IMG/VR virus record: IMGVR_UViG_3300048911_000270
Coordinates: 1,064-65,063 of that record
DNA: 64,000 bases
Reading direction: 5' to 3' (one strand)
DNA from: a virus
Position 1 is the stretch's first letter. The number at the start of each line of letters is the position of its first letter. Below are positions 13,903 to 57,590 of the stretch, piece by piece. A program made the position numbers and the translations under genes. Under the pieces are notes generated by a model that saw nothing but the letters and a program-made list of their open reading frames with translations, ran no database searches and was not told the origin of the DNA.

Positions 13903-14086
13903 CAGGCACCCCGCCCGGGTAAGTCGCTTGGCATCCCGTTTACCCCCACTAGATAGATCCATCTCATGTTACGGGTTCAATGCCCGATTTCCTACGCCTG
14001 GAAGGCTTCCCTCCAGCTTCTTGCAGCGTTGCTTGCAGTGCTGGCTGTAGAGGGCTCGGGCAGGGGTCGGCAGCCGTCCACGAGGC

Positions 14087-14456: not shown

Positions 14457-16253
14457 ATGACGGAGAATATCTCCCCTACCACCCCGGCAGCAACCACCCT
14501 CGCCGCCACCCCGGTTACGAAAGCCACCCTCGACACGGGCTGGCTGATGACCCGGGACAACGTCGTCCACGTGATCACGCGTGGACGCGACCCCCAGGAC
14601 TCCTCCCAGTACATCCTGGACGAAGAACCCTACGGTGATTTCGACATCGTGGCACTCGGCATCATCGCCGACGACAAGACCGAGCGCCGGGCCTGGGACG
14701 TCGTGATCGTCCGGCAGAGCGACGGCAAGGAGCTGCGCCGCATCCTGGACGAGAAAACCCTCGCGGACAGCAAGAGGCTGACGCTGTGGCTGACCTCGGC
14801 CGGAGTCTCCGTGATGTGCCCCGACGGCGCGCTCGGCGGCGGTGTTGCCCAGGGCGTGCGCCTGCTGCGCTACATCAACGCGCAGAAGCCGCCGGAGGCC
14901 ACGATCGTGGACCAGGTGGGCTACCACCCCGACCTGAACGTTTTCGTGGCCCACGAGGGCGTCCTGCGCCCGGGAGACACCGCGTTCGACCCCAAGGCGC
15001 CCTACCGTCCCTCTGCGCAGCTCTCCACGTCCGGGGACGCCCCCTTCGCCTACGGGTTCGCGCCGAAGGGTCTGGAGGAGGTCCGGGACGTGCTGGCGCA
15101 GGTGCTGACGTTCCATGACGAAACGCCCCTGGCGGTCGCTGCGTCGTGGATGGTGATGTCCCTGGTGCAGTCCGCGATCATCCAGCACACGTCGCATTTT
15201 CCCGTGATGGCCATCGAGGCGCCGTCGGGGTCGGGCAAGACCACGGGTGCCCTGTCGATGCTCCGGCAGTTGCTCACGGGCAACACCTCCGGGCCCTCCC
15301 AGGGAACGATCCCCGACGTCCGCCAGAAGATCGCGTCCACCCGGTCCGGATTCGTCCACATTGACGACCTGGACGACCCGAAAGCCGTGTTCGAGATGCT
15401 GCGGCTGTCGACGGCCGACGGCACCAAGATGATGCGCTCGCACGCCTCGGGGTTCATGGCCTCCCAGCACTCCCAGCTCACCGGAACGATTCTGCTGACC
15501 GGCGAGTACCTGGGCCTGCGGTCCCAGAAGGCGCTGGTGGACCGGATTCTGATGCTGGAGCTGACGGACCCCACCAACCGCAAGTCCCAGATCCCCGGCC
15601 GGGAGCACATCTCCCAGTGGGCCGACGTGACGGCCCTGTCCCGCCGCTACCCGGGCACGGTCGTTGCGGAGATCCTGCGCTGGCTGGACGACATCGAAGC
15701 GCTGCTGGACGAGGTCAAGCCGTGCCCGGGACGTCTGGGTGACAAGTACGCGACGGTGCTGGCCGGGGCCTGCTTCGTGGATCACCTGCTCGGCGACTCC
15801 AAGGCGTGGATCAAAAAGGGTGATACGTACGCGCAGGTGATGGCCTGGGTCGAAGAGGACATGCAGTTCGCGAACTCCTGGGACAACGCCCTGACGACCG
15901 AAATCCTCCCCTGGGCCCTGCACGAGTACGGCGGCTGGGCCGGGGTGGACATCAACGCCTACGAACCGGTCAAGATCTCCGGCAAGACCTTCGTCACCGC
16001 GCCCGGCTTCTACAAGGAGGACGGGGACAACGGGGAGGGCATCTTCATTCACCCGCGCACCCTCGCCGACGCCTGGCGGGCCTACGTCGGTCACAAGGCC
16101 GAGGACCGTGTCCACTCGTCCGCCGCCATCGTCGCGCAGGCCAAGATCGCCGGGTTCGTGGAGAAGGTCATCAAGGTCCCCGGCGGCAAGTCCGTCAAGG
16201 GCTGGATCCTCCACGGCGACAAGGTGGAGATCATCCGCCAGCGCGCAAGCTGA
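14457..16253 (+). CDS. Replication helicase/ATPase (primase-associated type)
   Basis: 598 aa; Walker A APSGSGKTT, Walker B FVHIDD; adjacent to the iteron element. Confidence 0.65.
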   Translation: MTENISPTTPAATTLAATPVTKATLDTGWLMTRDNVVHVITRGRDPQDSSQYILDEEPYGDFDIVALGIIADDKTERRAWDVVIVRQSDGKELRRILDEKTLADSKRLTLWLTSAGVSVMCPDGALGGGVAQGVRLLRYINAQKPPEATIVDQVGYHPDLNVFVAHEGVLRPGDTAFDPKAPYRPSAQLSTSGDAPFAYGFAPKGLEEVRDVLAQVLTFHDETPLAVAASWMVMSLVQSAIIQHTSHFPVMAIEAPSGSGKTTGALSMLRQLLTGNTSGPSQGTIPDVRQKIASTRSGFVHIDDLDDPKAVFEMLRLSTADGTKMMRSHASGFMASQHSQLTGTILLTGEYLGLRSQKALVDRILMLELTDPTNRKSQIPGREHISQWADVTALSRRYPGTVVAEILRWLDDIEALLDEVKPCPGRLGDKYATVLAGACFVDHLLGDSKAWIKKGDTYAQVMAWVEEDMQFANSWDNALTTEILPWALHEYGGWAGVDINAYEPVKISGKTFVTAPGFYKEDGDNGEGIFIHPRTLADAWRAYVGHKAEDRVHSSAAIVAQAKIAGFVEKVIKVPGGKSVKGWILHGDKVEIIRQRAS

Positions 16254-16583: not shown

Positions 16584-19500
16584 CTAATCCCATTCGTCGG
16601 TGGGGACGATCTCCACGACGATGTAGCGCTTGCCGCTGTACGGCTTGGTTCCGTCCGGCGGGGACGCCTGGTCCGAGACCACCCGGTACTTGGTGCCGCG
16701 CGGCAGCAGGATCTCCTGCTCGTGGGAGAACTTGGATCCCGTCGCGTAGTTGGCGTCGATGACCTTGTGCCCCTTGGGGATGCGGACTTCCATCCACACG
16801 TTGCCGCTGAAGGCGTTCTTGTCCTTGGCCGTCGAACCGTACGCCAGGTCCTGGTAGACGTTGCCGGGGTCCATCGGCGGCGGGAAGTCCGGGAACTGGC
16901 CGTTGGTGCCCATCTTGCGGACCGTGACGAGGTCGTGGGCCAGCGGCGGCGCCTGCCGGAACGCGTCGTCCATGTGCTTGATGGTGTCGTCCCAGTCACC
17001 GCCCGTGGCCCCGACCGGCGGCGTGATCATGGTGCCGTCGTAGTCGAAGTGGCCGCGAAGCTGACCGTTGATCTCCGAGTGCTCGTGACCCGTGTACGTG
17101 TACACGGCGGACGACGCCTTGCCCTTGGGCTTCCAGCCGTTGCCGATGTCCACACCGTTGGTCGCGGCCGTGTACCCGGCGGCGTGTGCCCCGGCGAACT
17201 GCGTCTTGGTGTGCGCCAGGACCGCGTCTTCGTCGCCCGCCTCGGCGGCCGTCATCCCCTTGGGGACCGCCTTGGCCGGGTCGAAGGACGCCGGATCGAA
17301 CGGCGAGCTGTAGTGCGCGTCCCAGTCCTTCTTCGCCTGCTTGTACAGGGCGATCTGCGCCGGGGTCGCGTTCGGGCCGTGGGCCTGGTCGTACAGCTTC
17401 TTCAGCAGTACCGCGTTCGCCTTCTTGGTGATACCCAGGCCGGTGTACTTGACCTCCGGAGCCGTCACCACGTCGGGCGAAAGACCCTGGCTCTTGAGGT
17501 ACGTCTTCGGCGAGTTCTGGGCCTGCGCGATGTCCAGCGTGGACGCGCCCGCCTTCTCGGCGGCTTCCTTGAGGTCGATGGACTTGTCATAGTCCCAGTG
17601 GTCACTGTTCTGCGGCAGGTTGTGCTCGGCCAGGGCCTTGAGCGCCGCCTGCTTGGCGGAGAGCGAACCGGTACCGGACGGTGCCGCCGCAGCCGCAGCC
17701 GTCGCCGGGTTGTTCTGCTTGTCCAGTTCGGCCTGGGCCTCGGTGTTCCAGTGCTTGTTGATGACGCCCTGCTTGAAGTCAGCGAACGCCTGCGGGTTCT
17801 CGTTCTTCCACTTGGCGAACTCCTCCTTCGTGAAGTTCTTGCCGCCGTAGTTCTTGGCCATCCACTCGGCGGCGAGCTTGGCCTCCTTCTGCGTCTTGAA
17901 CTTGTGCGAGCCCATCTTCATGCCGTCGGCCTGCGTCACCGACCAGCCGGAGCCACCGAGGGCCTTGTGGACCACGAGGTTCTTGGGACCGGCCACGCCC
18001 TGGGACATGTGCGTGTTGCCGTCGGCGTCCTTGACCCCGTGCTCCACCTTGGACCACTTGGCCTTCGGCTTGAACGGGTCCGTCTTCGGGCCGGACGGGG
18101 CCGCCGGAGCCGACGCGTCCGCCTCAGGGGCCTTCTTCTCCGCCGGAGCAGCCGCGCTCTCCTTGGCCTTCAGCGCCTTCAGCGTCTCGTCCGACTTGTA
18201 GTACGCCGCGTGGATCTCGTCGGGGGTGGCCCCGGCGTTGATGGCGGCGTTCTCCAGCTTCTCGGACGTCTGGTGGTTCCAGTCGGCGGTGTTGTCGTCG
18301 TGCTCGTGCGCGGCGAGCGCCTTGAGCGCCTTCTCCTTCTCCGACAGGCCCTGGGGCGCCGGAGTAGGTGCAGAGGACTTGGAGACCTTGTCCAGGAACG
18401 CCTTCGGGTTCTGGATGGCGGCGATGACTTCCTTGGGGTCCGCGCCCAGGTCGATGGCCTTCTGCTTCAGGGTCGTGTATTCGCCGGGCTCCCACTCTTC
18501 CCCGGAGGCCATCTTCTCGGCCATGGTCTTGATCACGGCGTCCTTCGCCGACAGACCGGAGTCCTTCGCAGAAGGCGACGGGGCCGAGGGGCTGTTGGCG
18601 AGGAAGGCGTCCGGGTCCTTGACCACGGAGGTGATTTCCGCCTTCGTGGCGCCCGCCGCGAGAGCCTTCGACTTTGCGACCTTGTAGTCGGTCTCGTTCC
18701 AGTCGTTGTCATCGATCTTCATCATCTCGGCGATGGCCTTGAGCGCGGCGTCCTTCTCCGCCGAACCGCCGGAACCGGCCTCCGGGGCATCGGCAGCCTT
18801 GGCCGCCTTCTGCGCCGGAGCAGCGCCCTGCTTGCCCTTGTCGGGCAGGTCGTCGTAGAGCTTCTGGAAGTCCTTGCCCAGGCTGTTCTTGTGGGCAACG
18901 ATCTTGTCGAGGAACTTCTCCTCGGTGTCGACGCCGCCCGGGAACTTGTGGCCGCTCGCGAGGGCCTGCTTGGCGTACGGGGCGAAGAGCCGCTTGAACT
19001 CCTCGTCCGGCATGTCCTGGATTGCCTTGATCGTTTTGGCGAACTCGTTGTCCCCGGACGGGTCCGGGAGCTGGATCTTGCCTTCCTTGGCAGCCTGCCA
19101 CAGGGCGGGGTACACGGCCGAGTGCGCGTTCGGGCCGTACGTGGTCAGCGGGTCGCCCTTGGACTTGCCGCCGTCGCCCTTGTACGGGTCGCCGTTGGAG
19201 GCGCCCACGGTGTACTTGAACGCCTGGCCCTGGTCGATCGACATGAGGCCGGTCGACGGGGACTTGATCCACTGGCCGTTGTGGGAGTCCTGGTTGCCGG
19301 TGGCGTAGTCCAGCACCTGGTGCTGGAGCATCTTCATGATGTCCTCGGGGGGCATCTTCGCGGCCATGTCGGCGTTGAACTTGTAGCCCGGGAACGCGTC
19401 CTCGGCGCCGGGGATCATGCCCTGGAGGTGACCGTCCTTGGTCTTCACGAACACCGGGGTCGGCAGGCCGACCTTGCGGTGCAGCGCGGCGACGGCGGGG

Positions 19501-21677
19501 TCAAGGCTGCGGGAGTACTCGTCCGTCTTCGCCAGCCACAGGTTCCCGTCCTCGTCCTTCATCAGCTTGCTGCCGTGGGAACCGAGCGTCTTGCCGGTGT
19601 ACGTCAGCTTGCCGACCGGCTTGAGAACCTTGCCGTCGTCGGCCGCGTCGACCTTCTTGACCGGAGCGGACGGAGCCTCGGCGGCCTTCTTGGTCGCGGC
19701 GGCGTCGGCCGCGTCACCGTGGTGCTGGACCAGGTTCTTGAACTTGTTGACGGCCCAGTCCTTGGGCTCGTCCTTGTCCTGCTCCGCCTTGAGGGCCTTC
19801 GCAGCCGCCTGACCGGCCGCCTGGTGGTCCTTGTGGTCCCCGGTGATCTCGGCGATGGACGACAGCGCGTTCGCCTTCATGGCGGGGCTGTCCGCCTTGT
19901 CGGCGAGTTCCGCGACCTTCTTGTAGTTCTCGATCGCCTTGTCTTTGTCCCCGGCCGTCAGGGCGTCGTCAGCGGCGTTGAACGCCTGCCCGGCCTGCTG
20001 GAGCGCCTGCGACTTCTCCGACTCGGCCTTGGCGGCAGCAGTGGCCTGCTCGCCGTGCTGGGTCGCCTTGGCCATGTGGCCCTGGGCGGCCTCCTTGTGG
20101 TCCGCCGCCAGGCCCTGGAAGCCCGCGTCCAAGGCGGCCTTCTCCGCGTTGGAGTGCAGCAGGGCCGCTTCCAGGTGCTTGGCGTTCAGCGTGTCGTCGC
20201 TGGCCTTGGCGTAGGTCGCCTCGTGCACCTCGGACGTCTTGGCGTGCGCCTTCTTGCCGTGGGCGTCGTACGCCTGCATCTTCGCGAGCGCTTCGGCGTT
20301 CTTCTTGTCGACCTCGGCGGCCTTGGCCTTGTACGAGGCGGCGTTCGCCTTGTGGTCCTCGGCCTCGTCGTGCAGACCGGCGGCCTTCGCAGCCTGGTGC
20401 GCCTTCTCGTACTTGGCGGCGGCGTCCTTGAACGCGGTCGACGCCGAACCCGAGTCCCCCAGCGCGTGGCCCTTGTTGGCGGCCTCGTCGGCGGCCTTGG
20501 CGTGCTTGGCGATCTCGGCCTGGGCCGCCTTCTGCTTGGCCTCGTGCTCGTCGTGCTGCTTCTGGAGCCCGGCCGCGATCTCCGCGTGCTTGGCCTCGTG
20601 CTGCTTGTGCTCGTTGACGGACTCGTCGTTGCCGATCTGCCCGTGCGCGTTCGCAGCCTGCCCGTGCGCCTGGGCGGCCTGGTTGTGCGCGTGCGCCTGC
20701 GCGGCCAGCGGGGTGTCACCCTCCTCGCTGGCAATCGACGCGCTCTTGGACTTCTTGTAGGCGCCGTCCGACATGGTGGCGGCGGCCTTGTCCAGTGAGT
20801 CGTGCGTCTTCTGCTGGTTCTCGGCGATCTTCTCGTGCTTGGCCACCGCTCCCGCGTGGGCCTCGCCGACGAACTTGTTCCCGGCCTCCTCGTTGGCGTG
20901 CTGCGCGTTCAGGTGCGCGGCAGCAGCCTTCGTGTGCAGCTCGGCGGCCTGCTTCGGCGTGTGGTTGCCGCCCTTGATCGAGGCGGTGAGTTCGTTCGCC
21001 TCGGCCGTGAGCTTGGTCGCCTTGGCCTTGGCGTCCGCCAGCTTCTTGGCCGCCGCAGCCTTCTCGGCCTCCAGCGCCTTGGCCGCGTCCTCCTTCGCAC
21101 CCTGCTCCAGCTTCGTCGCCTTCGAGGCGTGGATCGCGGAGTGCGCGGAGTGCGTGAGGACACCCGACTTCAGGCCGTCCTTGCCCATGCCCTGGAAGTG
21201 GTGGGCGGCGTCGGCGTGCTGAGTCGCCGCGACCTTGTGGGCCGCCGCCAGAACGGCCTTGGAAGCGCCGGACTCTTCGAGCTTGTGCACCATGTTGGTG
21301 GCGCGCTCGGCCTTCTGGACGGCTGCCTTCGCCGCTTCCTGCTTGGCCGCGACACCCGCCGCGCCCTTCTTGACCTCGGCCTCCCAGTCCGCCTTGGAGG
21401 CGTACCGGTTGACGGCCTTGAAGGAGATCTTGCCGTCGGCGCCCTTGACGAAGTGGCCGGTGGTGTGACCGCCGGAGATGTGGCCGTGCTGACGGGCGAG
21501 ACCGCCGCCGGACAGACCACGGGAGGGGATCAGGGGGTTGATCAAGATCCATCCGTGGCGGTATCTAAATGCAAGGGCGCCAGCGGGATTTTTCGAGAAA
21601 TCTAAGGTGTGAGCGTCAACAACCCTCACATTCTTAGGTAACACCCCGACGAACGCTAACTCATATTCCACGTTCAC
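16584..21677 (-). CDS. Giant head-cargo protein: His/Ala-rich region, HipA/PI3-4K-like kinase, four helical repeats, C-terminal ADP-ribosyltransferase
   Basis: Kinase: LWLAK...VLDYATGNQDSHNGQW...SIDQGQAF. ART (R-S-E): YTYTG...INGQLR...VTVRKM...YGSTA...EQEILLPRGTKYRV. Confidence 0.78.
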   Translation of the reverse strand: MNVEYELAFVGVLPKNVRVVDAHTLDFSKNPAGALAFRYRHGWILINPLIPSRGLSGGGLARQHGHISGGHTTGHFVKGADGKISFKAVNRYASKADWEAEVKKGAAGVAAKQEAAKAAVQKAERATNMVHKLEESGASKAVLAAAHKVAATQHADAAHHFQGMGKDGLKSGVLTHSAHSAIHASKATKLEQGAKEDAAKALEAEKAAAAKKLADAKAKATKLTAEANELTASIKGGNHTPKQAAELHTKAAAAHLNAQHANEEAGNKFVGEAHAGAVAKHEKIAENQQKTHDSLDKAAATMSDGAYKKSKSASIASEEGDTPLAAQAHAHNQAAQAHGQAANAHGQIGNDESVNEHKQHEAKHAEIAAGLQKQHDEHEAKQKAAQAEIAKHAKAADEAANKGHALGDSGSASTAFKDAAAKYEKAHQAAKAAGLHDEAEDHKANAASYKAKAAEVDKKNAEALAKMQAYDAHGKKAHAKTSEVHEATYAKASDDTLNAKHLEAALLHSNAEKAALDAGFQGLAADHKEAAQGHMAKATQHGEQATAAAKAESEKSQALQQAGQAFNAADDALTAGDKDKAIENYKKVAELADKADSPAMKANALSSIAEITGDHKDHQAAGQAAAKALKAEQDKDEPKDWAVNKFKNLVQHHGDAADAAATKKAAEAPSAPVKKVDAADDGKVLKPVGKLTYTGKTLGSHGSKLMKDEDGNLWLAKTDEYSRSLDPAVAALHRKVGLPTPVFVKTKDGHLQGMIPGAEDAFPGYKFNADMAAKMPPEDIMKMLQHQVLDYATGNQDSHNGQWIKSPSTGLMSIDQGQAFKYTVGASNGDPYKGDGGKSKGDPLTTYGPNAHSAVYPALWQAAKEGKIQLPDPSGDNEFAKTIKAIQDMPDEEFKRLFAPYAKQALASGHKFPGGVDTEEKFLDKIVAHKNSLGKDFQKLYDDLPDKGKQGAAPAQKAAKAADAPEAGSGGSAEKDAALKAIAEMMKIDDNDWNETDYKVAKSKALAAGATKAEITSVVKDPDAFLANSPSAPSPSAKDSGLSAKDAVIKTMAEKMASGEEWEPGEYTTLKQKAIDLGADPKEVIAAIQNPKAFLDKVSKSSAPTPAPQGLSEKEKALKALAAHEHDDNTADWNHQTSEKLENAAINAGATPDEIHAAYYKSDETLKALKAKESAAAPAEKKAPEADASAPAAPSGPKTDPFKPKAKWSKVEHGVKDADGNTHMSQGVAGPKNLVVHKALGGSGWSVTQADGMKMGSHKFKTQKEAKLAAEWMAKNYGGKNFTKEEFAKWKNENPQAFADFKQGVINKHWNTEAQAELDKQNNPATAAAAAAPSGTGSLSAKQAALKALAEHNLPQNSDHWDYDKSIDLKEAAEKAGASTLDIAQAQNSPKTYLKSQGLSPDVVTAPEVKYTGLGITKKANAVLLKKLYDQAHGPNATPAQIALYKQAKKDWDAHYSSPFDPASFDPAKAVPKGMTAAEAGDEDAVLAHTKTQFAGAHAAGYTAATNGVDIGNGWKPKGKASSAVYTYTGHEHSEINGQLRGHFDYDGTMITPPVGATGGDWDDTIKHMDDAFRQAPPLAHDLVTVRKMGTNGQFPDFPPPMDPGNVYQDLAYGSTAKDKNAFSGNVWMEVRIPKGHKVIDANYATGSKFSHEQEILLPRGTKYRVVSDQASPPDGTKPYSGKRYIVVEIVPTDEWD

Positions 21678-25275: not shown

Positions 25276-26856
25276 TTATTTGCCCTTCCCGGCACCCTGA
25301 CTACCGGTGGAACCCTTTGCCGCAGCGGCCTTCTGCTGGACCATCTTCGCGGCCTTGTTGATGCTCGCCCCGGCCTTCGCCAGCTCCGCCTTGCGCTGCA
25401 CGTTCGCAGCCCCCACGGCCGCGCCCGACTGCGGGCCGCCCTGGGCCGCGAGCTGCTTCTGCGCGTCCAGACCCGTGCGCTTGGTCTCCAGCTCCAGGTC
25501 CATGCGCTCGTCAATGCGGTCGGCGAGCTGCTTGAACTCCTGGTTGACCTCTTCCATCGGCATGTCGAGGTAGGTCCCCATCATGCGGGTCAGCTCCGTC
25601 ATGAACGCCTGGGGGACGCGGAGTTCGGTCGGGGTCGTGCCGAACGCCGTCAGCAGCTCCTTGACGACGGTCAGGTCACCCTCGGACAGCGGCCCGAACT
25701 CGAACGTCGGGCAGACCGCGCCGGGGCCGAAGTTGTACATGACCAGGTCGGCGATCACGTAGTTCGTGATCGATTCGGCCAGCTCCCGCGCGGTGCCCGT
25801 CAGGGACTGGAGGAAGAAGTCGCTCTGGTCCTTGGACAGGGCGTACGAACCGCCGGGGCTGTCGGGCAGGTTGGTGAACCCGGCCAGCACGGACGCGGCC
25901 ATCTGGTTGTCCAGGTAGTCGATGAACTCCTTGAACAGGGCGGCGGCCCCGGTGCCCAGCTCCAGCGTGCTGATGTCCGTCTCGGTCGACGTGCCCAGCA
26001 CACCGCCGTTCTTCAGGTGCCGCAGCGCCTGCGCGTACTGCCGGGCCCGGGTCTCGTCCTCGGCCCGCACGACGTACCGGCCGGTGGCGTTGGCCTCCAG
26101 GAACGTCGCCCAGAGGAACAGCACCTTCTGCTTCTTGTCGTGGAGCCAGTAGATCAGCTCCATGTCGGAGTGACCGCGCGCGGCGTTGATGTGCTGGTTG
26201 TTCAGGTGCACCCAGGCGTACTGGGCGGGGATGTCCACCCAGATGTCCGGCCAGATCTCCCCGCCGACCGACACCGGGCGCTGCCGGAAGCCCCGGAACG
26301 CGCCGGACTTGGGGTCGCGGGCGATGGCCGTGGTGGGTGAGGGGCGGAACGCCAGCCGGTCGTAGACGACCTTGCCGTCCTTGTCGGTGAAGACCTTCTC
26401 GAAGCAGGCCTTGCGGTAGGTACGCGCGGAGAGAGCCTGCGCGATGACCAGGCGCATCGGGGTCTTCATGCCGCCCTGGTTCGCCGGGGTCGTCAGCGCC
26501 TTGGTGACGAACTCGGCCTCGCCCTTGTCCCCCGGTCCGGCGACGATCTTCCACGGCGCGGAGCGGATCGGGAGGGTGAGCACCTGCTGGATCGTGCGGG
26601 CCTTGCCGTCCTTGGCGAGCATTTCGTCAAGGGACAGCGACCCCCATTCGTCCTCGTCCAGGAGAATGCGGCCGGGGATACCGGACCACGATGCGACATA
26701 AGCGTCGGTTGTGGTGAAAAGGCTACCGGCCTCCGTGTCAAGAACGACGTCGGGAGCCCCCTTCACCGTCTTGGTCGGTGCGGCCTTTTCAGGCGCGTTA
26801 CCCGACGCGTAAAAGGGTGCCGATAACGGCACATCGCCAGCCTGCTCTGCGCCCAC
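25276..26856 (-). CDS. Portal protein (Mu gp29/DUF935-like)
   Basis: 526 aa; QQVLTLPIRSAPW...ARGHSDMELIY...DNQMAASVLAGF...GSYALS; follows terminase. Confidence 0.88.
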   Translation of the reverse strand: MGAEQAGDVPLSAPFYASGNAPEKAAPTKTVKGAPDVVLDTEAGSLFTTTDAYVASWSGIPGRILLDEDEWGSLSLDEMLAKDGKARTIQQVLTLPIRSAPWKIVAGPGDKGEAEFVTKALTTPANQGGMKTPMRLVIAQALSARTYRKACFEKVFTDKDGKVVYDRLAFRPSPTTAIARDPKSGAFRGFRQRPVSVGGEIWPDIWVDIPAQYAWVHLNNQHINAARGHSDMELIYWLHDKKQKVLFLWATFLEANATGRYVVRAEDETRARQYAQALRHLKNGGVLGTSTETDISTLELGTGAAALFKEFIDYLDNQMAASVLAGFTNLPDSPGGSYALSKDQSDFFLQSLTGTARELAESITNYVIADLVMYNFGPGAVCPTFEFGPLSEGDLTVVKELLTAFGTTPTELRVPQAFMTELTRMMGTYLDMPMEEVNQEFKQLADRIDERMDLELETKRTGLDAQKQLAAQGGPQSGAAVGAANVQRKAELAKAGASINKAAKMVQQKAAAAKGSTGSQGAGKGK

Positions 26857-26914: not shown

Positions 26915-28621
26915 CTACCAGCCCGCGAGTTCCATATCCGAGGAGGAATCCCACTTCTCCACGACGGTCTCGGTATCGACGGGCGGGGCGTACCTCTCGT
27001 CCGGGTCCTTCCATCCGGAGTCCTTCATCTCCTCGGCGCTCTGCACGACCGAGGGGAGCCAGAAGGCGTGGATGATGGCGTCCGCGCGGTCGGTGGACCG
27101 GCCCAGACGCTTCTTGATGTCATCCTTCTTTTCGATCTTGTACTTCGGGGTACCGGGCTGCGTGTCGAAGCGCGGGCAGGTCAGCTCCGCCAGCAGCTTT
27201 TCGTCCCTCGGGAACGCGATCGTCGCCCCGCCCCGGCGCGCCGGATTCAACAGCTCCCGCAGGTTCCACCAGGCCGCCGCACGGTCGTTGACGAACCCCA
27301 TCTTCTTGGTGGTGTCCTTGCGCCCGGAGTTCGCCGCCGCGATGAACGCGTACGTGTCCTGAGAGTCGCGGCGCAGCTTGGCCACCACGCCGGAACCCAC
27401 ACCGATGCCGTCCACGATGTACTTCGCGTTCGTCGGGGCGCCGTGCTTGACCGCGATCTGCTGAAGGTCGTCGGCCGTGGTCAACGGGTCCTTGGAGGGG
27501 AACGCCAGCAGCTCGCGGACCACGTCGCCCTGACGGACCGCAGCCGTCGTCTCGTCCTCGCCGCCGTCGGAGATGTCCGCGCCGATGACGATGTCACCGG
27601 GCTGCTGCTGCTTCGGCTCGACCAGGCAGACCGGCTCCTCGGTGTCCGGGTCGATGATGTACGTGCCGTCCCGCCAGCGCTCCCAGCGGGCCATGGCAGC
27701 CTCGGCCCAGGCCAGCGGGATGACGCCCTCGGAGGACGTCTCGGGGAACAGGGCCCGCACCTTGGACATGAACAGGGAACTGTCGGCGCCCCAGCCGACC
27801 ATCGACTCGTAGACCCAGGTCGGGCCGACCAGCGTCTTCTGGAGCGTCGGGGAGACCTCTTCGGTGGAGAAGGGGATGCCCTCCGCCTTCATGTACTCCA
27901 CCAGCTTGGGATACCGGGAGCATGCCTCCTCGGTCATCAGCGGGCTGCGTAAGGCGTCGATGCGGATCTTGTTCCACTTCTCGCCGAGCGGAGACTCCGG
28001 GTTGCACACGGAGCGGAAGTGGGAGCCCGGGTCGGTGGGGTTCCCGATGGCCAGCACGCGGGAGGACTCGTTGGTGACCAGGGAGTCGACGGCGTCCCAG
28101 ATGGACCGGTCGACGCCGCACGCCTCATCGATCACGACCAAGATCTTTTCGGCGTGGAAACCCTGGAACGCGGAGTCTTCCTTGTCCGGGGGCTTCTGGC
28201 CGATACCGACCAGCTCGCCGTTGATCTTCCACGAGGGGATCGGGGAGGACAGGATCTGACCGGGGATGGGGAAGCCGCGTTCGGCCGCGAGGTTGTGGGC
28301 GCGCTGGATGTAGCGCCACAGGATGGAGGCCACCTGGCGGGCTGTGGGCGCCGTGGTGACGAGGAAGACCTCGTTCATGGGGATGGTGGCGATCCACCAG
28401 GCTGCGAGCCGGGATGCGAGGTGGGACTTGCCTGCGGCGTGACAGGACTGGACGGCTGTGAATCGGTGGTCCCGGACGGATTCGCAGATCTGTGTCTGCA
28501 TGGACCACATGTCCTCGCCGAGGACGTCGTTAACCCAGCGGGCGGGATTGCGGTGGTCGTCCTTTTTGGCCTGTAACTCGTAGAGAACGGCAAGCCTGTC
28601 CGCCCATGCGCTACCTGCCAC
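26915..28621 (-). CDS. terL: Terminase large subunit
   Basis: TAVQSCHAAGKS Walker A-like, LVVIDEA Walker B, LAIGNP, nuclease IGADIS...VDGIGVG...STDRADA. Confidence 0.93.
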   Translation of the reverse strand: MAGSAWADRLAVLYELQAKKDDHRNPARWVNDVLGEDMWSMQTQICESVRDHRFTAVQSCHAAGKSHLASRLAAWWIATIPMNEVFLVTTAPTARQVASILWRYIQRAHNLAAERGFPIPGQILSSPIPSWKINGELVGIGQKPPDKEDSAFQGFHAEKILVVIDEACGVDRSIWDAVDSLVTNESSRVLAIGNPTDPGSHFRSVCNPESPLGEKWNKIRIDALRSPLMTEEACSRYPKLVEYMKAEGIPFSTEEVSPTLQKTLVGPTWVYESMVGWGADSSLFMSKVRALFPETSSEGVIPLAWAEAAMARWERWRDGTYIIDPDTEEPVCLVEPKQQQPGDIVIGADISDGGEDETTAAVRQGDVVRELLAFPSKDPLTTADDLQQIAVKHGAPTNAKYIVDGIGVGSGVVAKLRRDSQDTYAFIAAANSGRKDTTKKMGFVNDRAAAWWNLRELLNPARRGGATIAFPRDEKLLAELTCPRFDTQPGTPKYKIEKKDDIKKRLGRSTDRADAIIHAFWLPSVVQSAEEMKDSGWKDPDERYAPPVDTETVVEKWDSSSDMELAGW

Positions 28622-35406: not shown

Positions 35407-36486
35407 ATGACCTTCACCACCCAGCAGAAGAAGCTGTCCTCCCTCATCGGCGGCGCCCTCGGAGACGCCCTCGGCTACAGCCGCGAGTTCTCCCCCGTCG
35501 GCCAGCACCTCAAGAACATCCCCGGCCGCGACTGGCGCAACGCCGACTTCGACAACGCACCCAACGCCGCGCACTACCAGGACGAGACCGGGCACGCGCT
35601 CGTCTCCGACGACACACAGATGACCATCGCCACGGGCCGGGCGCTCCTCGCCGCCGAGAACGGTTTTCGCATCCAGTACACCAACAACCTCGCGGCCGAA
35701 CTGGCACGAAAGTATGTCGCCTGGTCCAAGCACCCCGACAACACACGGGCCCCGGGCGGGGCGTGCATGAGCGCCTGCCGGAAGCTGGACGACGACCGGT
35801 CCTGGGAGACCGAGCTGGGTACCTGGATCCGGGCCACGGACATCGACACGATGGGCTGCGGCGCCAACATGCGCGTTGCGCCGATCGGCCTGTACATGAA
35901 CCCGGGCGCCGGATCCCTGATCGATATCGCCTACCTGTCCTCGGCCATGACGCACGCCCACCCTGCCGCGCTCGCCTCGGCCGCGCTCACCACGGCCGCC
36001 GTCACGGGCGCCTTCGACGGGATGAACGGCCGGGAGATCCTGGACATGCTGCTGGACATGTGCGAGATGTCCCAGTTCATTCACTACCCGGAGACCGTCC
36101 TCGGCCCCCTGTGGGAGCTGTCCCAGTTCGACTCGGCCCTGTCCTACCTCCAGGCCGGATACCAGCGCTGCGGCTTCTACCTGCGCCAGGCGGACAGGGC
36201 GCTGCGGAACGGCTGGAAGGGCCAGAACGACCCGTGCATCATCACGGGTGAGGGCTGGACCGCGCCGGAAGCCCTCGCGGGCGCGATGCTGTGCACCGTG
36301 GGCCTGTGGGACGAGCCCGTGCAGGTTCTCCAGCGCGCGGCCGTCTCCAAGGGCGACAGCGACTCCCTGGCGTCCATCGCGGGCAACATCCGTGGGGCGG
36401 CCGGAGTCGAGTGGCCGGAGCACCTGGTGAGCCGTCTGGAGCAGGGCCCCGTACGGGAGCTGCACGCCCTCGCCAAGGCCCTGTAA
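35407..36486 (+). CDS. ADP-ribosylglycohydrolase (DraG/ARH family)
   Basis: GGALGDALG, SDDTQMT, GCGANMRVAP, MTHAHP, GDSDSLASIAG. Confidence 0.92.
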   Translation: MTFTTQQKKLSSLIGGALGDALGYSREFSPVGQHLKNIPGRDWRNADFDNAPNAAHYQDETGHALVSDDTQMTIATGRALLAAENGFRIQYTNNLAAELARKYVAWSKHPDNTRAPGGACMSACRKLDDDRSWETELGTWIRATDIDTMGCGANMRVAPIGLYMNPGAGSLIDIAYLSSAMTHAHPAALASAALTTAAVTGAFDGMNGREILDMLLDMCEMSQFIHYPETVLGPLWELSQFDSALSYLQAGYQRCGFYLRQADRALRNGWKGQNDPCIITGEGWTAPEALAGAMLCTVGLWDEPVQVLQRAAVSKGDSDSLASIAGNIRGAAGVEWPEHLVSRLEQGPVRELHALAKAL

Positions 36487-51954: not shown

Positions 51955-52089
51955 CGGGATTCGGCATTTGCCAGGGAAACGTGACTGCGCCAACCTAGAG
52001 TGACTGCGAGTGAGTTGACGCTCACTCAGCATGAGTGCTAGGGTAGATATAAGGCAGTCGCCTTACCCACCCACAGAAGGGACCACCCC

Positions 52090-52221
52090 ATGTTCGTGTA
52101 CGACGAACGCCTTCAGATGAACGTCCTCGCCGACGGCACCGCACTGATCGACACCGGGCACGCCCTCGGCTACAGCATCTGCCAGGGCGGCGACGACGAC
52201 GTCCCCCGGGAAGATGACTAG
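52090..52221 (+). CDS. Putative ATP-grasp RiPP (graspetide) precursor peptide
   Basis: 43 aa, MFVYDERLQMNVLADGTALIDTGHALGYSICQGGDDDVPREDD; YD..xQ leader and acidic tail; RBS AGAAGG; stop overlaps the ligase ATG. Confidence 0.8.
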   Translation: MFVYDERLQMNVLADGTALIDTGHALGYSICQGGDDDVPREDD

Positions 52222-53119
52222 CCGTACCCCGGTCGTCGTGATCGTCACCTCCCGGAAAGACGTACCCGCCGACATGGTGGTACGCCTCCTGGGAGGTGAC
52301 GGTTTTCCGGTCGACGTCCACCGCGTCGACCCGGCCGACATAGAGACCGGCTACCTCAAGCTCCGCGCCGTTCTGCGTCAGGGGCGCTGCACCTTCACCC
52401 TTTCCGACCCCCACCGCACCACCGAGTCGGACCGGATCGCCGCCATCTGGTGGCGCAAGCCGATGACCACCACCAGCAACGAGGGCCACGCCCAGCTAGA
52501 GGGCCTGCTGAGGACGCTGGACGGGGTCAGGTGGCTCAACCACCCCGACATCAACACCAAGGCCGCCCACAAGCCCGTGCAGCTCCTGCGGGCCCACCAG
52601 GCGGGCCTGAGGGTCCCGGAGACCGTACTTCCCGCCGGGTCCCAATCCCTCGCCTCCGTGTTCTCCGCGTCGCACGCGGCCGGGGCCGTGGCCAAGACCC
52701 TCGCCATCAAGGGCGGCGTCACCTGGGTCACCGGGGACTGGGAATCCAGCCTCGCCGCCGGTCCCATCGCACTCCAGGAGCGCGTGGCCAAGGACTACGA
52801 CGTCAGGGTCACAGCAGTGGACGGCAAACTCTTCGCCGCGACCGTTACCCCGCCCAACGGGGAAGTCGACTGGCGCCGCGTCCAGGAGGACTGCGTCTAC
52901 TGGCCCATCGCCGTCCCCGAGGACGTCGCCCGGGGCATCTCCATCTACCTGGAGATGCAGAACCTGACCTACGGCGCGTTCGACTTCGCGGTCGACGGGG
53001 AGGGGCAGTGGTGGTTCCTGGAGTGCAACCCGAACGGGCAGTCCGCGTTCATCGAGATCCGCACGGGCCTGCCCATCGCCCAGGCGCTCGCCGAAACCCT
53101 GGCGGTCGCTCCGAGTTAA
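52214..53119 (+). CDS. ATP-grasp ribosomal peptide maturase (MvdC/SAV_5884-like)
   Basis: IWWRKP, WLNHP..K..QL..A...GLRVPET, LQERVAKDYDVRVT, DWR, YGAFDFAV...WWFLECNPNGQ. Confidence 0.92.
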   Translation: MTSRTPVVVIVTSRKDVPADMVVRLLGGDGFPVDVHRVDPADIETGYLKLRAVLRQGRCTFTLSDPHRTTESDRIAAIWWRKPMTTTSNEGHAQLEGLLRTLDGVRWLNHPDINTKAAHKPVQLLRAHQAGLRVPETVLPAGSQSLASVFSASHAAGAVAKTLAIKGGVTWVTGDWESSLAAGPIALQERVAKDYDVRVTAVDGKLFAATVTPPNGEVDWRRVQEDCVYWPIAVPEDVARGISIYLEMQNLTYGAFDFAVDGEGQWWFLECNPNGQSAFIEIRTGLPIAQALAETLAVAPS

Positions 53120-53155
53120 TCCATGCACGACCTTCCCAATCCAGGAGGTACGACC

Positions 53156-53296
53156 ATGGCACACCGCGTGATCTGGTATCAGAGTGAGGATGAGGACGTC
53201 CCGAGAGTCCGTCACAAGGGGGTGCCCGTCCGTACCGTCGAGATAGTCGCGCTTTGGGCTGTAATCACCCTGGTTATGTGGAAGGGCTGCTTTTAG
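53156..53296 (+). CDS. Small C-terminally membrane-anchored peptide
   Basis: MAHRVIWYQSEDEDVPRVRHKGVPVRTVEIVALWAVITLVMWKGCF; RBS GGAGG. Confidence 0.6.
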   Translation: MAHRVIWYQSEDEDVPRVRHKGVPVRTVEIVALWAVITLVMWKGCF

Positions 53297-53351: not shown

Positions 53352-53552
53352 ATGTCCCAGGACCAGGCAGTAGGAACGCTGGGAGAGGCCCCGCTGGGGC
53401 TTCTGCTGGCGGCGGCTGAAGAAGAGGTCCGGCAGCTAGGTCAACGGCTGTCGGACCGTGGCGTTTTGGCGTCCGATCCGGTGGCCGCCGAGCTGCTGGT
53501 CCGGGTCCGTGCGTGCCTTCTGGTGGCGGGTGAGCGGGTGGATTCTGCCTGA
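53352..53552 (+). CDS. Hypothetical protein
   Basis: 66 aa; RBS GGAGG. Confidence 0.5.
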   Translation: MSQDQAVGTLGEAPLGLLLAAAEEEVRQLGQRLSDRGVLASDPVAAELLVRVRACLLVAGERVDSA

Positions 53553-53630
53553 TGACCGAGGGGGCGGGGGTGTACTCTCCGCCCCCTTAGTGCTAGGGTA
53601 GATACATCGTCACAACGTTTGGAGAAAGCC

Positions 53631-54398
53631 ATGTCCCAGGTCTTCAACCTCACCGGCCGCGAGCGCCACAAGCTGAACAGCGGCTACAAGTTCGGCAGCA
53701 AGATCAACGTCTGGGGCAACGACACCGCCCTGATCGCGAGCCTCACCGAACGCGGCCTCGTGGAGAAGGACCCCGACGGCCCCTACGTCCTGCTCACCGA
53801 CCTCGGCCGCATCGCGATGGACTTCATCGCCTCCAAGCGGGAAGAGGAACGGGAGGTCTGGGCCGTCGCGCTGGCCACCGTGAAGGAGATCGAGAGCACC
53901 CACGAGGCGTACGCCGGAACCTCCCGCGACGGCGCCACGTACACCCACCACGAGGACGGCACCATCGACGTCCGCACCGTCTACAAGGCCGGGAACCAGG
54001 ACGGCTCCGACTCCGTGTTCACCGTCACCGCGACGCGGCACCCGAAAGCCGTCCACAAGGGTGAGCCGGTCATCACGGTCACCATCGATGAGACCGTGAC
54101 CCACGCCGACGACTTCTGGGGACCCGGCGGCCCGCGCGACGAGGACGACCCCGCCTGCCGCGTCGTCGTCAACAACGTCCACTACATCATCGTCCCGGAC
54201 ACGAACAGCCGCTTCCAGGGCCACGGCGGCGCGGTGTTCGAGATCGCGTTCCACGACGGCCGCCGCGTCACCTCCCGCAACCTCTGGACCCAGGGCAAGA
54301 TCCCCCCGAAGTGGCGCGACCGCTTCCCCAACAACGCCGAGTTCATCCAGCGTGACCGCCCGTCCCTCGCCGACCAGTTGGGCCTCAAGGCCATCTGA
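53631..54398 (+). CDS. Hypothetical protein with wHTH-like N-terminus
   Basis: ASLTERGLVE...VLLTDLGR; downstream of the motif at 53590. Confidence 0.6.
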   Translation: MSQVFNLTGRERHKLNSGYKFGSKINVWGNDTALIASLTERGLVEKDPDGPYVLLTDLGRIAMDFIASKREEEREVWAVALATVKEIESTHEAYAGTSRDGATYTHHEDGTIDVRTVYKAGNQDGSDSVFTVTATRHPKAVHKGEPVITVTIDETVTHADDFWGPGGPRDEDDPACRVVVNNVHYIIVPDTNSRFQGHGGAVFEIAFHDGRRVTSRNLWTQGKIPPKWRDRFPNNAEFIQRDRPSLADQLGLKAI

Positions 54399-55235: not shown

Positions 55236-55394
55236 CCCTGCTAGGCTGTCACCGCTAACTCGGTTGCGCTAGGCCGGGGTAGACATCCGGAGAGCCCCGC
55301 CGTAGGAGCCCCGCCGAGAGGCTATGGGGTGACCGCAAGGCGGGGTTTTCTGTTGCCCGCAGGCCCTGCCGAAAGCATGTGCTAGGGTAGATCC

Positions 55395-55548
55395 AATGGT
55401 TGGATTGGTGAGCGTAGACCGCGTTCGATTCCGGTCGTCCCCCTGGCGGGGGTGTGGGGTTCAATTCCCCTTCACCATCGGTGGCAAAAAGCGAGGGCCG
55501 CGCGCCTGATGACCGCGCAGAGGGGTTCGAATCCCCTCCCAACCATTA
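55395..55548 (+). ncRNA. tRNA-mimic structured RNA with three T-loops
   Basis: Own promoter motif and terminator; acceptor-like GGTTGG/CCAACC plus T-arm GAGGGG-TTCGAAT-CCCCTC; two extra GTTCRATTC hairpins. Confidence 0.72.
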
Positions 55549-55583
55549 CAGCCCCTCCCGAGTCGGCTCGGGAGGGGCTGTTT
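55549..55583 (+). terminator. Intrinsic terminator of the ncRNA
   Basis: CAGCCCCTCCCGAG-tcgg-CTCGGGAGGGGCTG-TTT. Confidence 0.8.
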
Positions 55584-55776
55584 GCGTGCTAGCCTCTTAC
55601 TTGCTACTGACAGTGAGGTCGCGATTCGGTTTTCGAGGACTTGGGCGTGACCTCACATAGCAGCAAACTGCCCCCTCCCGCGCTGTAGTCGGGAGGGGGC
55701 AGTTCTGCGATGCGACAACCCTCCCGGAGTCAGGAGGGAAGGCGCAACACTCACACCGGAGTCAGTAACACCGGGG

Positions 55777-56072: not shown

Positions 56073-56185
56073 TGTGCCAGTGAATAGAGTATTCTGTGGC
56101 ACAAAATTAGCGCACAGTAACCGAATCGGTCACTGTGCGTATCAGTTTGCGGCCCCCGGCTACCCGGAACACATTCACTGGCACA
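56073..56185. other. Nested inverted repeats; candidate recombinase site
   Basis: Core GCGCACAGTAA-CCGAATCGG-TCACTGTGCGT (56110-56140) flanked by TGTGCCAGTGAAT / ATTCACTGGCACA. Confidence 0.55.
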
Positions 56186-56209
56186 ACCACCAGGACCGAG
56201 GACACCCAC

Positions 56210-57112
56210 ATGAGCCTTCCGCTGGAACGGGCCATCTCCCAATGGCTCGACACCACTCCGCCGCCCTTCACGGAAAGGACCACCGTCCGGGACTACCGGC
56301 TCACTCTCACCCGCTGCGCTGCATCCATCGGCTGCAACCAAGACGTTCGCAGCGTTCCCGGGGAGCAGTGGTACGCAACGTTGCTTGCACTGTGGGGCAC
56401 CAAGAGCCCCAGCACGTGGAACCGGAACCGGGCGGCCGTCCGGGCGTTCCTCCAGTACCTCCGGGACGCTGGAGAAGCCGACACGGAACTGCCCGCTCTG
56501 TGCAAGGCCCGCAAGGTCACCATCGACCGCACCAAGGCCGTGGACGAAGACGAGATCGAGCGCCTGTGGGCGGCCGAACTGCGCCTCCGGGAGCGGACGT
56601 TGTGGCGGCTGCTGTACGACACGTCCTCCCGCGCAGAGGCCATTTTGTCCCTGGACGTCCCGGACGTCGACCTCAAGAGGAACCGGGCCCGTACGGTTAT
56701 CAAGGGCGGCGACACCAACTGGATCTACTTCGACAACCCCAGCGCCAAGCTGCTGCGGGAGTACATCGGTCTCCGCACGGCTGGGCCTTTGTTCCTGACC
56801 GACGGCATGCCCCGGAACTGGCGCACCCGGGCGCCCGAGGACCGGGAACCCGGAGGTCGTCGCTACCGGCTGTCATACAACCGGGCGGAGCGCATCCTCA
56901 AGGAGACCACTGGAGGTTGGACGCTGCACCGGATCCGGCACTCCCGGCTGTCCCACCTTGCCGGTGATGGGATCCCGACACCGATGCTGATGGCCATCTC
57001 CGGGCACACCAGCCCGACCACCCTGCAACGCCGCTACGCCATCCCCTCCGGCGCCGCAGTGGCCCGCCTGTTCGAACAGATGCGCAAGAAGAACGGAAGC
57101 TCCGATGACTGA
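56210..57112 (+). CDS. Tyrosine recombinase (XerC/D-like, no arm-binding domain)
   Basis: R (SSR), K (IKGG), HRIRH, SGH, Y (RRY). Confidence 0.92.
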   Translation: MSLPLERAISQWLDTTPPPFTERTTVRDYRLTLTRCAASIGCNQDVRSVPGEQWYATLLALWGTKSPSTWNRNRAAVRAFLQYLRDAGEADTELPALCKARKVTIDRTKAVDEDEIERLWAAELRLRERTLWRLLYDTSSRAEAILSLDVPDVDLKRNRARTVIKGGDTNWIYFDNPSAKLLREYIGLRTAGPLFLTDGMPRNWRTRAPEDREPGGRRYRLSYNRAERILKETTGGWTLHRIRHSRLSHLAGDGIPTPMLMAISGHTSPTTLQRRYAIPSGAAVARLFEQMRKKNGSSDD

Positions 57113-57590
57113 TCAGCCTTTGCCGAACCTGGCGTTCATCCGCTCCCGGAAACGCGCCTATGAAGACGGCGTACCGGCGTGTTGGGACTGGGACCCAACA
57201 CGACCTGCCCTGTCGGAGGCTTACGCAGGGTTCTCCCCCGACACACTGGCGCTCCTGGGAGACGGGTTGATCCTCTCGTCCTGGCAGAGGGGCCGCTGTG
57301 CCGTCTGCGGGGGCAGAGAGCAGGTGGAGGACCACGACCACGAAACCGGGTACGTACGCGGCCTGCTATGTCGTTCCTGCAACTCAATGGAGGGGGCGGC
57401 CTACCGGGATTATCCGGTGTTCGAGAACTACCGGCAGCGGTACCCAACACTGATCCTTGGCCTGAAGATCCGCTATATCAACCCGCTAGGTCACCCCACA
57501 ACGCGTCAGGAACAACGGGATTGGGAGCAGCAGGTATTCGGGGACAAGCCGTCGGATTCGGGGGACAACGCCATGCGAGGAGTGCTGTGA
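57105..57590 (+). CDS. Endonuclease VII-domain protein
   Basis: QRGRCAVCG...DHDHETGYVRGLLCRSCN. Confidence 0.85.
   Translation: MTDQPLPNLAFIRSRKRAYEDGVPACWDWDPTRPALSEAYAGFSPDTLALLGDGLILSSWQRGRCAVCGGREQVEDHDHETGYVRGLLCRSCNSMEGAAYRDYPVFENYRQRYPTLILGLKIRYINPLGHPTTRQEQRDWEQQVFGDKPSDSGDNAMRGVL

Follow-up and report, generated by a model that had tools for sequence, protein, structure and literature searches.

Does a phage encode a graspetide, a ribosomally made peptide with post-translational modifications (RiPP) matured by an ATP-grasp ligase, and what might such a peptide do for it? The question arises from a locus in a 64,000-nucleotide (nt) stretch of viral DNA (hereafter, the window), which comprises bases 1064-65063 of the 89.5-kb IMG/VR virus record IMGVR_UViG_3300048911_000270. 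Graspetides are bacterial products, several of them protease inhibitors, and phage RiPPs are known mainly as Firmicutes prophage bacteriocins. An earlier note on this DNA proposed a two-gene unit of precursor and ligase; the pair is real, but it is not the complete unit, to which a conserved third gene at 53156-53296 also belongs. We conclude that the locus is very probably an intact, phage-borne, three-gene graspetide cassette; for it we propose, conditionally, a ring chemistry and, as a guess, a conflict-related accessory role. The parts of the cassette are as follows (aa, amino acids).

52015-52049, + strand: predicted promoter; TTGACG at 52015-52020, an 18-nt spacer to TAGGGT, and an extended -10 element, TGCTAGGGT, at 52036-52044
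52077-52083, + strand: Shine-Dalgarno-like GAAGGGA, 6 nt before the precursor ATG
52090-52221, + strand: putative graspetide precursor, 43 aa, ATG start; leader at about residues 1-26 (YDERLQMNV..DG), core at about 27-43, GYSICQGGDDDVPREDD
52214-53119, + strand: PruB-like ATP-grasp macrocyclase, 301 aa, ATG start; 8-nt overlap with the precursor
53143-53148, + strand: ribosome-binding site AGGAGG, 7 nt upstream of the third gene's ATG
53156-53296, + strand: tail-anchored micro-protein, 46 aa; acidic N-terminal part and, by hydropathy, a C-terminal hydrophobic helix at about residues 27-43

The Ligase Sides with RiPP Maturases

The ligase is a graspetide macrocyclase whose translation is coupled to that of the precursor. 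Of the families compared, TIGR04187 (GRASP_SAV_5884 ATP-grasp ribosomal peptide maturase; E 9.3e-74, 248.4 bits, residues 8-296) scores highest, with lower scores for MvdC (127 bits, E 6.6e-37), MvdD (84 bits, E 9.4e-24), and RimK (20.6 bits, E 2.4e-4). Sequence matches in the PDB were graspetide ligases in six cases out of six: 9bou (E 1.5e-43), MdnB, AMdnB, MdnC, CdnC, and PsnB. An AlphaFold2 model built from 67 homologues (predicted local distance difference test score, pLDDT, 92.1) has PruB, 9bou, as its first Foldseek match (E 9.5e-29, template-modelling score 0.82, 37% identity), and ranks 1-32 are filled by PruB, AMdnB, MdnC, CdnC, MdnB, and PsnB. Residues K161, Q188, R198, D257, E270, and N272 (FLECNPNG motif) are invariant in the 67 homologues, the window's ligase included; we take them, from general knowledge of ATP-grasp enzymes, to bind ATP and Mg.

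These comparisons bear on a different reading, in which the enzyme is a RimK-type ligase that adds amino acids to C termini and the small open reading frame (ORF) beside it is incidental. PHROGs returns a weak match to "ribosomal protein S6 glutaminyl transferase" (E 3e-4), and the fold is common to RimK, which appears in the Foldseek list from rank 33 downward. Against it, the RimK score is 20.6 bits vs 248 for TIGR04187, RimK is absent from the PDB sequence matches, and the small ORF is conserved, coupled to the ligase, and homologous in its leader to Strep_pep. We consider this reading extremely improbable. Family scores, PDB matches, and Foldseek ranking thus resolve in favor of a RiPP maturase the earlier concern that the ligase might cluster with RimK-type protein modifiers, and they bear out the proposal of a graspetide precursor/maturase pair.

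A Conserved Leader Precedes a Lysine-Free Core

The precursor ORF (52090-52221) and the ligase ORF (52214-53119) both read through, in agreement with the original description of a 43-aa ORF overlapping an intact ATP-grasp gene; the precursor stop, TAG at 52219-52221, lies in the 8-nt overlap (ATGACTAG) with the ligase start at 52214. GC content at its three codon positions (0.70/0.34/0.89) is of the coding type, like that of the window's real genes, gene callers called the ORF on independent contigs, and in relatives purine-rich sites likewise precede the precursor start codons. Searched against the whole 89.5-kb record, a profile of ten precursors matched 52090-52221 alone (E 5e-27; next 0.58), with no second precursor elsewhere.

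Leader residues 2-21 match positions 21-41 of the 63 in PF14404 (Strep_pep; E 0.0026, 18.3 bits), and TIGR04186 matches the precursor at E 0.055 (13.6 bits). As expected of a graspetide pair, the peptide adjacent to the ligase combines a conserved leader with a core that holds nucleophiles (Y28, S29, and C31) and Asp/Glu acceptors (D35, D36, D37, E41, D42, and D43). The earlier description of this core as lacking Lys was correct; its count of five acidic residues was not, there being six.

Conservation singles out particular positions within this core. The six precursors of the SICQG type, with the core pattern YSICQGG..P[K/R].DD, share 19 invariant residues—D5, E6, L8, Q9, M10, V12, G16, T22, A25, Y28, S29, I30, C31, Q32, G33, D36, P39, D42, and D43—and their pairwise ratios of nonsynonymous to synonymous substitution (dN/dS) are about 0.2-0.7. 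Across ten diverged peptides, D42 and D43 are the sole invariant acidic positions, D36 being invariant within the subclade, and the column of C31 holds Cys, Thr, or Ser. Position 40 is Lys in five relatives and Arg in the window and in relative L186. The type is rare: the ten-precursor profile matched only 20 cluster representatives among 1.84 billion, and SICQG-type peptides form a single 50% cluster.

Other short-leader precursors (P0134, P0137, P0140, P0143, P0144, and P0132) carry further core types ending in DD or DDD, among them GPTMTHSSGDKTGPRKDDD, GPSYTHNSSGHKKDDD, GYTSTQVGDYLRTDD, and EGTSCRDESGVHHDD. The short YD..Q.NV leader thus pairs with many cores.

A Membrane Micro-Protein Accompanies One Core Type

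Orthologues of the third gene, 44-50 aa long, adjoin or overlap the ligase stop in all relatives with a SICQG core (L008/9, L012, L181, L184, L101/L102, and L186/7), and the gene is absent from relatives with other cores (L010, L183, and L013). The family comprises 8 clusters only among 5.8 billion proteins and has no Pfam or PADLOC match. Its N-terminal YQSEDEDVPR resembles the CQGGDDDVPR of the precursor core, with the same spacing in the two families: Y-Q-[GS]-x-x-D-x-x-P-R in the micro-protein vs C-Q-G-G-x-D-x-x-P-[K/R] in the core. At the level of sequence, this likeness is suggestive.

It also invites an alternative in which the micro-protein, or another host or phage protein, is the true or second substrate. 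The leader, in trans or in cis, would activate the ligase, which would then cross-link the micro-protein's acidic, core-like motif or join the precursor to it, and the product would be tethered to the membrane. Leader peptides can activate graspetide ligases in trans. The equal spacing of QGG.D..P[K/R] and Q[GS]..D..PR and the restriction of the micro-protein to SICQG-type cores (none in L010, L013, or L183) fit this alternative, as does the ability of ThfB to cyclize whole proteins given tags (PMC12291112). The similarity is, however, short and weak (probability 31%), and the micro-protein has neither a leader nor the invariant C-terminal DD acceptor pair. We know of no intermolecular ligation by a graspetide enzyme, and we judge the alternative decidedly unlikely.

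In a 60-aa protein on a 639-bp contig, P0128, the C-terminal two thirds of the micro-protein (GPRFIRVGVPRRTSQLVLTWLLITL...) are joined to an N-terminal segment that is HTH_17/excisionase-like. The protein is a fusion, or else its start was miscalled on so short a contig.

The Cassette Lies Within a Phage Genome

The source record has a CheckV completeness of 70%, and the GC content of the window is 65.5%. PHROG matches identify an exonuclease and the following virion, packaging, and replication genes; to these we add the recombinase downstream of the cassette.

8903-9817: major head protein (PHROG match)
12094-13962: tail fibre (PHROG match)
14457-16253: polymerase/primase (PHROG match)
25276-26856: portal (PHROG match)
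26915-28621: large terminase (PHROG match)
56135-57112: tyrosine recombinase, 325 aa (PF00589, E 2e-16), 3 kb downstream of the cassette

The phage is a large one, from soil and of the Streptomyces type; its terminase shares 40-43% identity with its counterparts in Streptomyces phages. On one side of the cassette stand virion and packaging genes and on the other phage-type genes, as in a phage genome: downstream come the tyrosine recombinase, an Endonuclease VII gene, an ArdC-N gene, and then small phage-type ORFs to the end of the record. In other samples the identical ligase recurs with unchanged neighbors, on up to 14 contigs, of which the longest measures 126 kb. Because phage genes stand on both sides and the identical-ligase contigs keep the same neighbors, the cassette is internal to a phage genome and not part of a host flank. 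The earlier claim that the pair is phage-encoded, with portal, terminase, capsid, and tail genes upstream and small phage-type ORFs downstream, therefore stands. Metagenomes from roots, rhizosphere, and soil contain the locus DNA, across 24 studies.

Related ligases extend this picture. The closest, at 55-63% identity, are well apart from the bulk of the family at 35-40% and form a 10-member clade in the ligase tree with 99% support in the Shimodaira–Hasegawa-like approximate likelihood-ratio test (SH-aLRT). In every relative examined, an ORF of 42-58 aa ends either 8 nt into the ligase gene or no more than ~20 nt upstream of it. The overlap is 8 nt in the seven clade members whose contigs were fetched, with the exception of L012, where the stop falls ~10 nt before the ligase; the same 8-nt overlap is seen with the 315-aa ligase of L186/L187, which lies outside the tree. 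Clade peptides have a common leader, Y-D-x-x-x-Q-x-N-V-x-x-x-G, and end in DD directly before the stop.

Two members of the same clade, L010 and L183, come from syntenic phages and combine the short leader with a canonical TTTSTAGSK.HFDD core; their peptides pass the PF14404 cut-off at 50.7 and 54.6 bits. Two genes that follow the cassette in the window, 53352-53552 (a 66-aa helical protein) and 53619-54398 (a protein of 255-259 aa with no family match), recur in the same order at L010 6071-7068 and L183 2033-3011. Kept in syntenic relatives with different cores, they are part of the backbone of the phage, as distinct from the mobile cassette.

Two further relatives show the cassette in lysogenic surroundings. 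The order in L186, which is temperate, is GH25 lysin, cassette, divergent helix-turn-helix (HTH) gene, 493-aa serine integrase, and YqaJ/RecT/RusA; in L012 the cassette sits at the edge of a Streptomyces nodosus prophage, near a holin. In about ten contexts, covering the window phage and its close relatives, no protease, exporter, or methyltransferase was found among called neighbors, as the earlier note had observed for the immediate surroundings here.

Could the cassette nonetheless be passenger DNA, a recently captured bacterial graspetide pair that drifts or moves selfishly and has no phage role? Chromosomes of Streptomyces and Kitasatospora carry the wider ligase family, L185, the nearest outgroup, has metabolic genes as neighbors, and both recombinases and cores differ between syntenic phages, implying frequent exchange at the site. 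Yet none of the three ORFs is disrupted in the window, or in relatives wherever the contig covers them, dN/dS is below 1, and catalytic residues are invariant. The recurrence of the identical ligase on up to 14 contigs and of the locus in runs of 24 studies also speaks against it, as does the finding of the 10-member clade in phage, prophage, or phage-like settings wherever surroundings are readable. Because a clade at 55-63% identity is found in phage-type settings, the cassette has persisted in phages through much divergence, and we regard a passenger origin without function as very unlikely.

The protein database, with its contigs, supplied the close relatives. A megablast search with the locus returned nothing among 50,697 phage records, and tblastn of the ligase against phage records gave two distant phage matches only (25-29% identity). 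Among viral contigs, a single-protein scan yielded one distant locus and an alignment-based scan seven, all 28-36% identical and with other cores; a metagenome scan contributed three further close loci only, L101, L102, and L160.

Recombinases at the same downstream site differ between phages: a 325-aa tyrosine recombinase in the window (site 56135-57590), a 346-aa tyrosine recombinase in L183 (4542-5582), and a 220-aa serine resolvase in L010 (8640-9730). An Endonuclease VII gene follows the recombinase in the window and in L010, and in L183 the ORF that follows matches no family. The position resembles an exchange hot spot.

At L008 (3423-5336) and L009 (3474-5387), the cassette adjoins a DUF397 + XRE/DUF5753 regulator pair and a small HATPase_c_2 protein. 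This regulator pair reportedly accompanies group 11 and group 13 graspetide clusters (PMC13097080).

A Repeated Phage Motif Precedes the Cassette

Upstream of the precursor, at 52036-52049 (+), lies a perfect copy of a 14-nt motif, TGCTAGGGTAGATA, that the phage repeats and that corresponds to an extended -10 element plus discriminator. With up to three mismatches allowed (<=3), the window contains 37 copies vs 1.08 expected, and 36 of them fall within 31.8-63.8 kb (31813-63827). The exception is a weak copy at 14468, apart from which the virion gene block is free of the motif. Motif orientation tracks gene orientation, the strand switching near 47.8 kb, and the next copy on the + strand after the cassette promoter is at 53591. 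About 30 non-structural genes of the window phage share the motif. The motif promoter proposed earlier upstream of the 43-aa ORF is thus real as a motif, and we infer promoter function for it.

The host-type (sigma-70-like) character of the motif, its placement on non-structural genes, and its absence from the virion block together suggest that host RNA polymerase would transcribe the cassette, whether at an early stage of infection or from a prophage. An Rfam search of 51.5-56.3 kb found nothing credible.

Proposed Ring Chemistry and Site of Action

By analogy with the enzymology of microviridin, plesiocin, fuscimiditide, and prunipeptin, the ligase would bind the short leader YDERLQMNV..DG. 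It would then phosphorylate side-chain carboxylates of C-terminal Asp residues, for which D42 and D43, invariant in all ten peptides, are the candidates. Nucleophiles of the invariant YSIC block would close one or two rings, S29 giving an omega-ester and C31 a thioester. Because its column holds Cys, Ser, or Thr, C31 is a candidate ring position, and the link there would be a thioester. Ester-forming graspetide ligases reportedly form thioesters once the nucleophile is substituted (PMC12291112); we found no case of a natural thioester graspetide in the literature.

Lys40 of the relatives was considered as a lactam nucleophile and rejected, position 40 being Arg in the window and in L186. Since this basic residue is either Lys or Arg among relatives, it is not the nucleophile, and no lactam is possible.

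With no protease or exporter encoded, the cell interior or the membrane is the probable place of action of the peptide, and there the micro-protein might be its docking, immunity, or second-substrate partner. Temperate relatives place the cassette between lysis genes and the integrase, and on that ground our guess is that it serves phage-host or phage-phage conflict as an accessory unit, at or near the membrane, rather than virion production. Shielding the lysogen or infected cell and inhibiting a host protease would be examples. Accessory ("moron") genes active in lysogens usually lie in such positions, beside lysis genes, an integrase, or a prophage edge. In these relatives the location is no less compatible with a prophage-expressed accessory gene than with a gene of the infection programme.

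The same position bears on the main rival to this account, in which the peptide is a secreted, bacteriocin-like weapon of the lysogen, exported and processed by host machinery to harm competitors, the micro-protein being the producer's immunity factor, after the manner of prophage bacteriocin clusters like that of sublancin on SPbeta. That chromosomal prunipeptin-type clusters are minimal too counts in its favor. So does the location of the cassette in the L186 lysogeny module and at the S. nodosus prophage edge, and a small membrane protein beside a RiPP gene has the usual form of an immunity gene. Nearly all described phage biosynthetic gene clusters (BGCs), moreover, are bacteriocins in temperate phages (bioRxiv 10.1101/2020.10.01.322628). 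However, a transporter, a leader protease, and a signal are absent in about ten contexts, the peptide is strongly acidic, and a motif common to about 30 non-structural genes points to expression during infection. We consider a secreted weapon unlikely.

Within the preferred account of a graspetide acting in the cell or at the membrane, a bolder version can be formulated. Here the product would be a natural thioester graspetide (C31-Asp) that acts with, or is attached to, the micro-protein at the inner membrane face as a tool of the phage during infection or lysogeny. Such a reactive peptide, still attached to its leader, could serve in superinfection exclusion or in covalent trapping of a host protease or defence protein. 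We think this version quite unlikely; if true, it would provide a new graspetide linkage and the first RiPP acting on the phage side in phage-host conflict.

Several results weigh against parts of the account given so far. The ligase scores 248.4 bits where the curated TIGR04187 cut-off is 350, and the precursor, matched in its leader only, lies below the cut-off of 25 bits for both PF14404 (18.3) and TIGR04186 (13.6); five of the six closest precursors have no PF14404 score at all. The search against TIGR04186/TIGR04187 suggested earlier thus gives TIGR04187 as the best family of the ligase but leaves both proteins below curated cut-offs, so that by the NCBI rule the ligase is a divergent relative and not a member. 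The profile-profile comparison of core and micro-protein aligned 10 columns only (P 5e-4, probability 31%), and covariation between the two in the residue before Pro was rejected, the pattern being broken by L181, L184, and L101. A generic promoter and terminator scan of 51.7-54.7 kb did not call the motif promoter and found no terminator, which leaves the extent of the transcription unit uncertain. No RNA run contains the locus. No PADLOC model matches any of five proteins, so a defence role has no direct support from that source. The number of rings, their partners, and the thioester are drawn from alignments.

Prunipeptin Is the Closest Characterized System

The closest characterized system is prunipeptin (PruA/PruB) of Streptomyces, described by Unno & Kodani 2021, as cited in PMC13097080. 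PruB (9bou) is the best match of the window's ligase in both sequence and fold, at 37% identity. The two systems share the second leader motif (Y.YD..LQLNVL.DG), a C-terminal DD, and a minimal cluster without protease or exporter, and syntenic phage relatives retain the canonical TTTSTAGSK.HFDD core. The full precursor at chromosomal Streptomyces loci reads MQPFALNYARPA...YAYDSGLQLNVLGDG...TTTSTAGSKTHFDD; the first leader motif, PFALNYARP, occurs in chromosomal L022-L100, but neither the window nor any of the phage clade's ten members has it. Comparison with these relatives thus makes the window peptide a Strep_pep-type precursor from which the first leader motif has been lost and which carries a different core.

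Other differences from prunipeptin concern the enzyme, the core, and the setting. Ligases of the phage clade are ~20 residues shorter and have no precomputed PF21068 match. Unlike the prunipeptin core, TTTSTAGSKTHFDD, the unrelated window core, GYSICQGGDDDVPREDD, has a Cys and no Lys, and the unit is phage-carried with an extra gene for a membrane micro-protein. Prunipeptin is said to contain one ester and one Lys-Asp isopeptide bond; the latter cannot form in the window peptide, since its core has no Lys.

Graspimiditides (fuscimiditide ThfA/ThfB/ThfM, group 13) are linked to the cassette by TIGR04187, the best family of the window's ligase, albeit below cut-off. They are expected to form ester rings that link Ser/Thr with Asp (PMC12291112), and group 13 clusters carry a PIMT-type O-methyltransferase (PMC13097080), whereas no methyltransferase was found among called neighbors of the window phage or its close relatives. 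The window's ligase also falls in the other main branch of the tree from most proteins named "ATP-grasp ribosomal peptide maturase" in their source. Upstream peptides on that source-named branch (L002 and L014) are long and Thr/Ser-rich.

Microviridin MdnB/MdnC with MdnA shares the enzyme fold and the leader-guided macrocyclization of side chains; its ligases, however, are only 22-25% identical to the window's, and its leader motif is PFFARFL. Unlike the window cassette, microviridin systems are cyanobacterial, comprise two ligases and a GNAT enzyme, and have described protease-inhibitor activity. Sublancin on Bacillus phage SPbeta provides a parallel of another kind, in that a ribosomal peptide and its modifying enzyme form a phage accessory unit; it differs in RiPP class and in having its own transporter and immunity genes. 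With sublancin and other prophage bacteriocins on record (bioRxiv 10.1101/2020.10.01.322628), the earlier claim that no phage RiPP pathway is known was too broad. The same survey describes phage-borne BGCs as rare, nearly all of them being bacteriocins, and lists neither a graspetide nor an ATP-grasp cluster; the literature on graspetides and phages yielded no description of a phage-encoded graspetide. The chemistry is thus of a known kind; this core, its membrane partner, and the phage setting are undescribed.

The interest of the locus is moderate, its enzymology being of a known kind. It defines a distinct PruB-like ligase branch in Streptomyces-type phages and prophages that keeps the ligase and short leader and swaps cores at the same position. 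Such natural core swapping on a fixed leader-enzyme pair, with a leader of ~25 residues, would be useful for peptide engineering, and the core supplies a candidate for a natural Cys-derived (thioester) ring. The unit, of three genes, is a simple one in which to ask what a cross-linked peptide gives a phage. Lanthipeptides of Streptomyces hosts were recently reported to act intracellularly against phages (bioRxiv 10.1101/2024.06.26.600839, as summarized in PMC12360287), an action that a phage-side RiPP would mirror.

Other Features of the Window

Between the cassette region and the recombinase, the stretch 55377-55590 contains TTCGAAT and GGTTCGAATCC-type T-loop-like sequences that follow a motif promoter at 55380-55393. 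This stretch, in which neither ARAGORN nor Rfam made a call, may derive from a tRNA, perhaps as a tRNA-like RNA or as what is left of an attachment site.

The virion block includes a 1697-aa protein (16584-21677, -) with a C-terminal ADP-ribosyltransferase-like domain (PHROG 3895, E 4e-7). A separate gene at 35407-36486 (+) encodes an ADP-ribosylglycohydrolase-like protein (PHROG 6572, E 1e-21).

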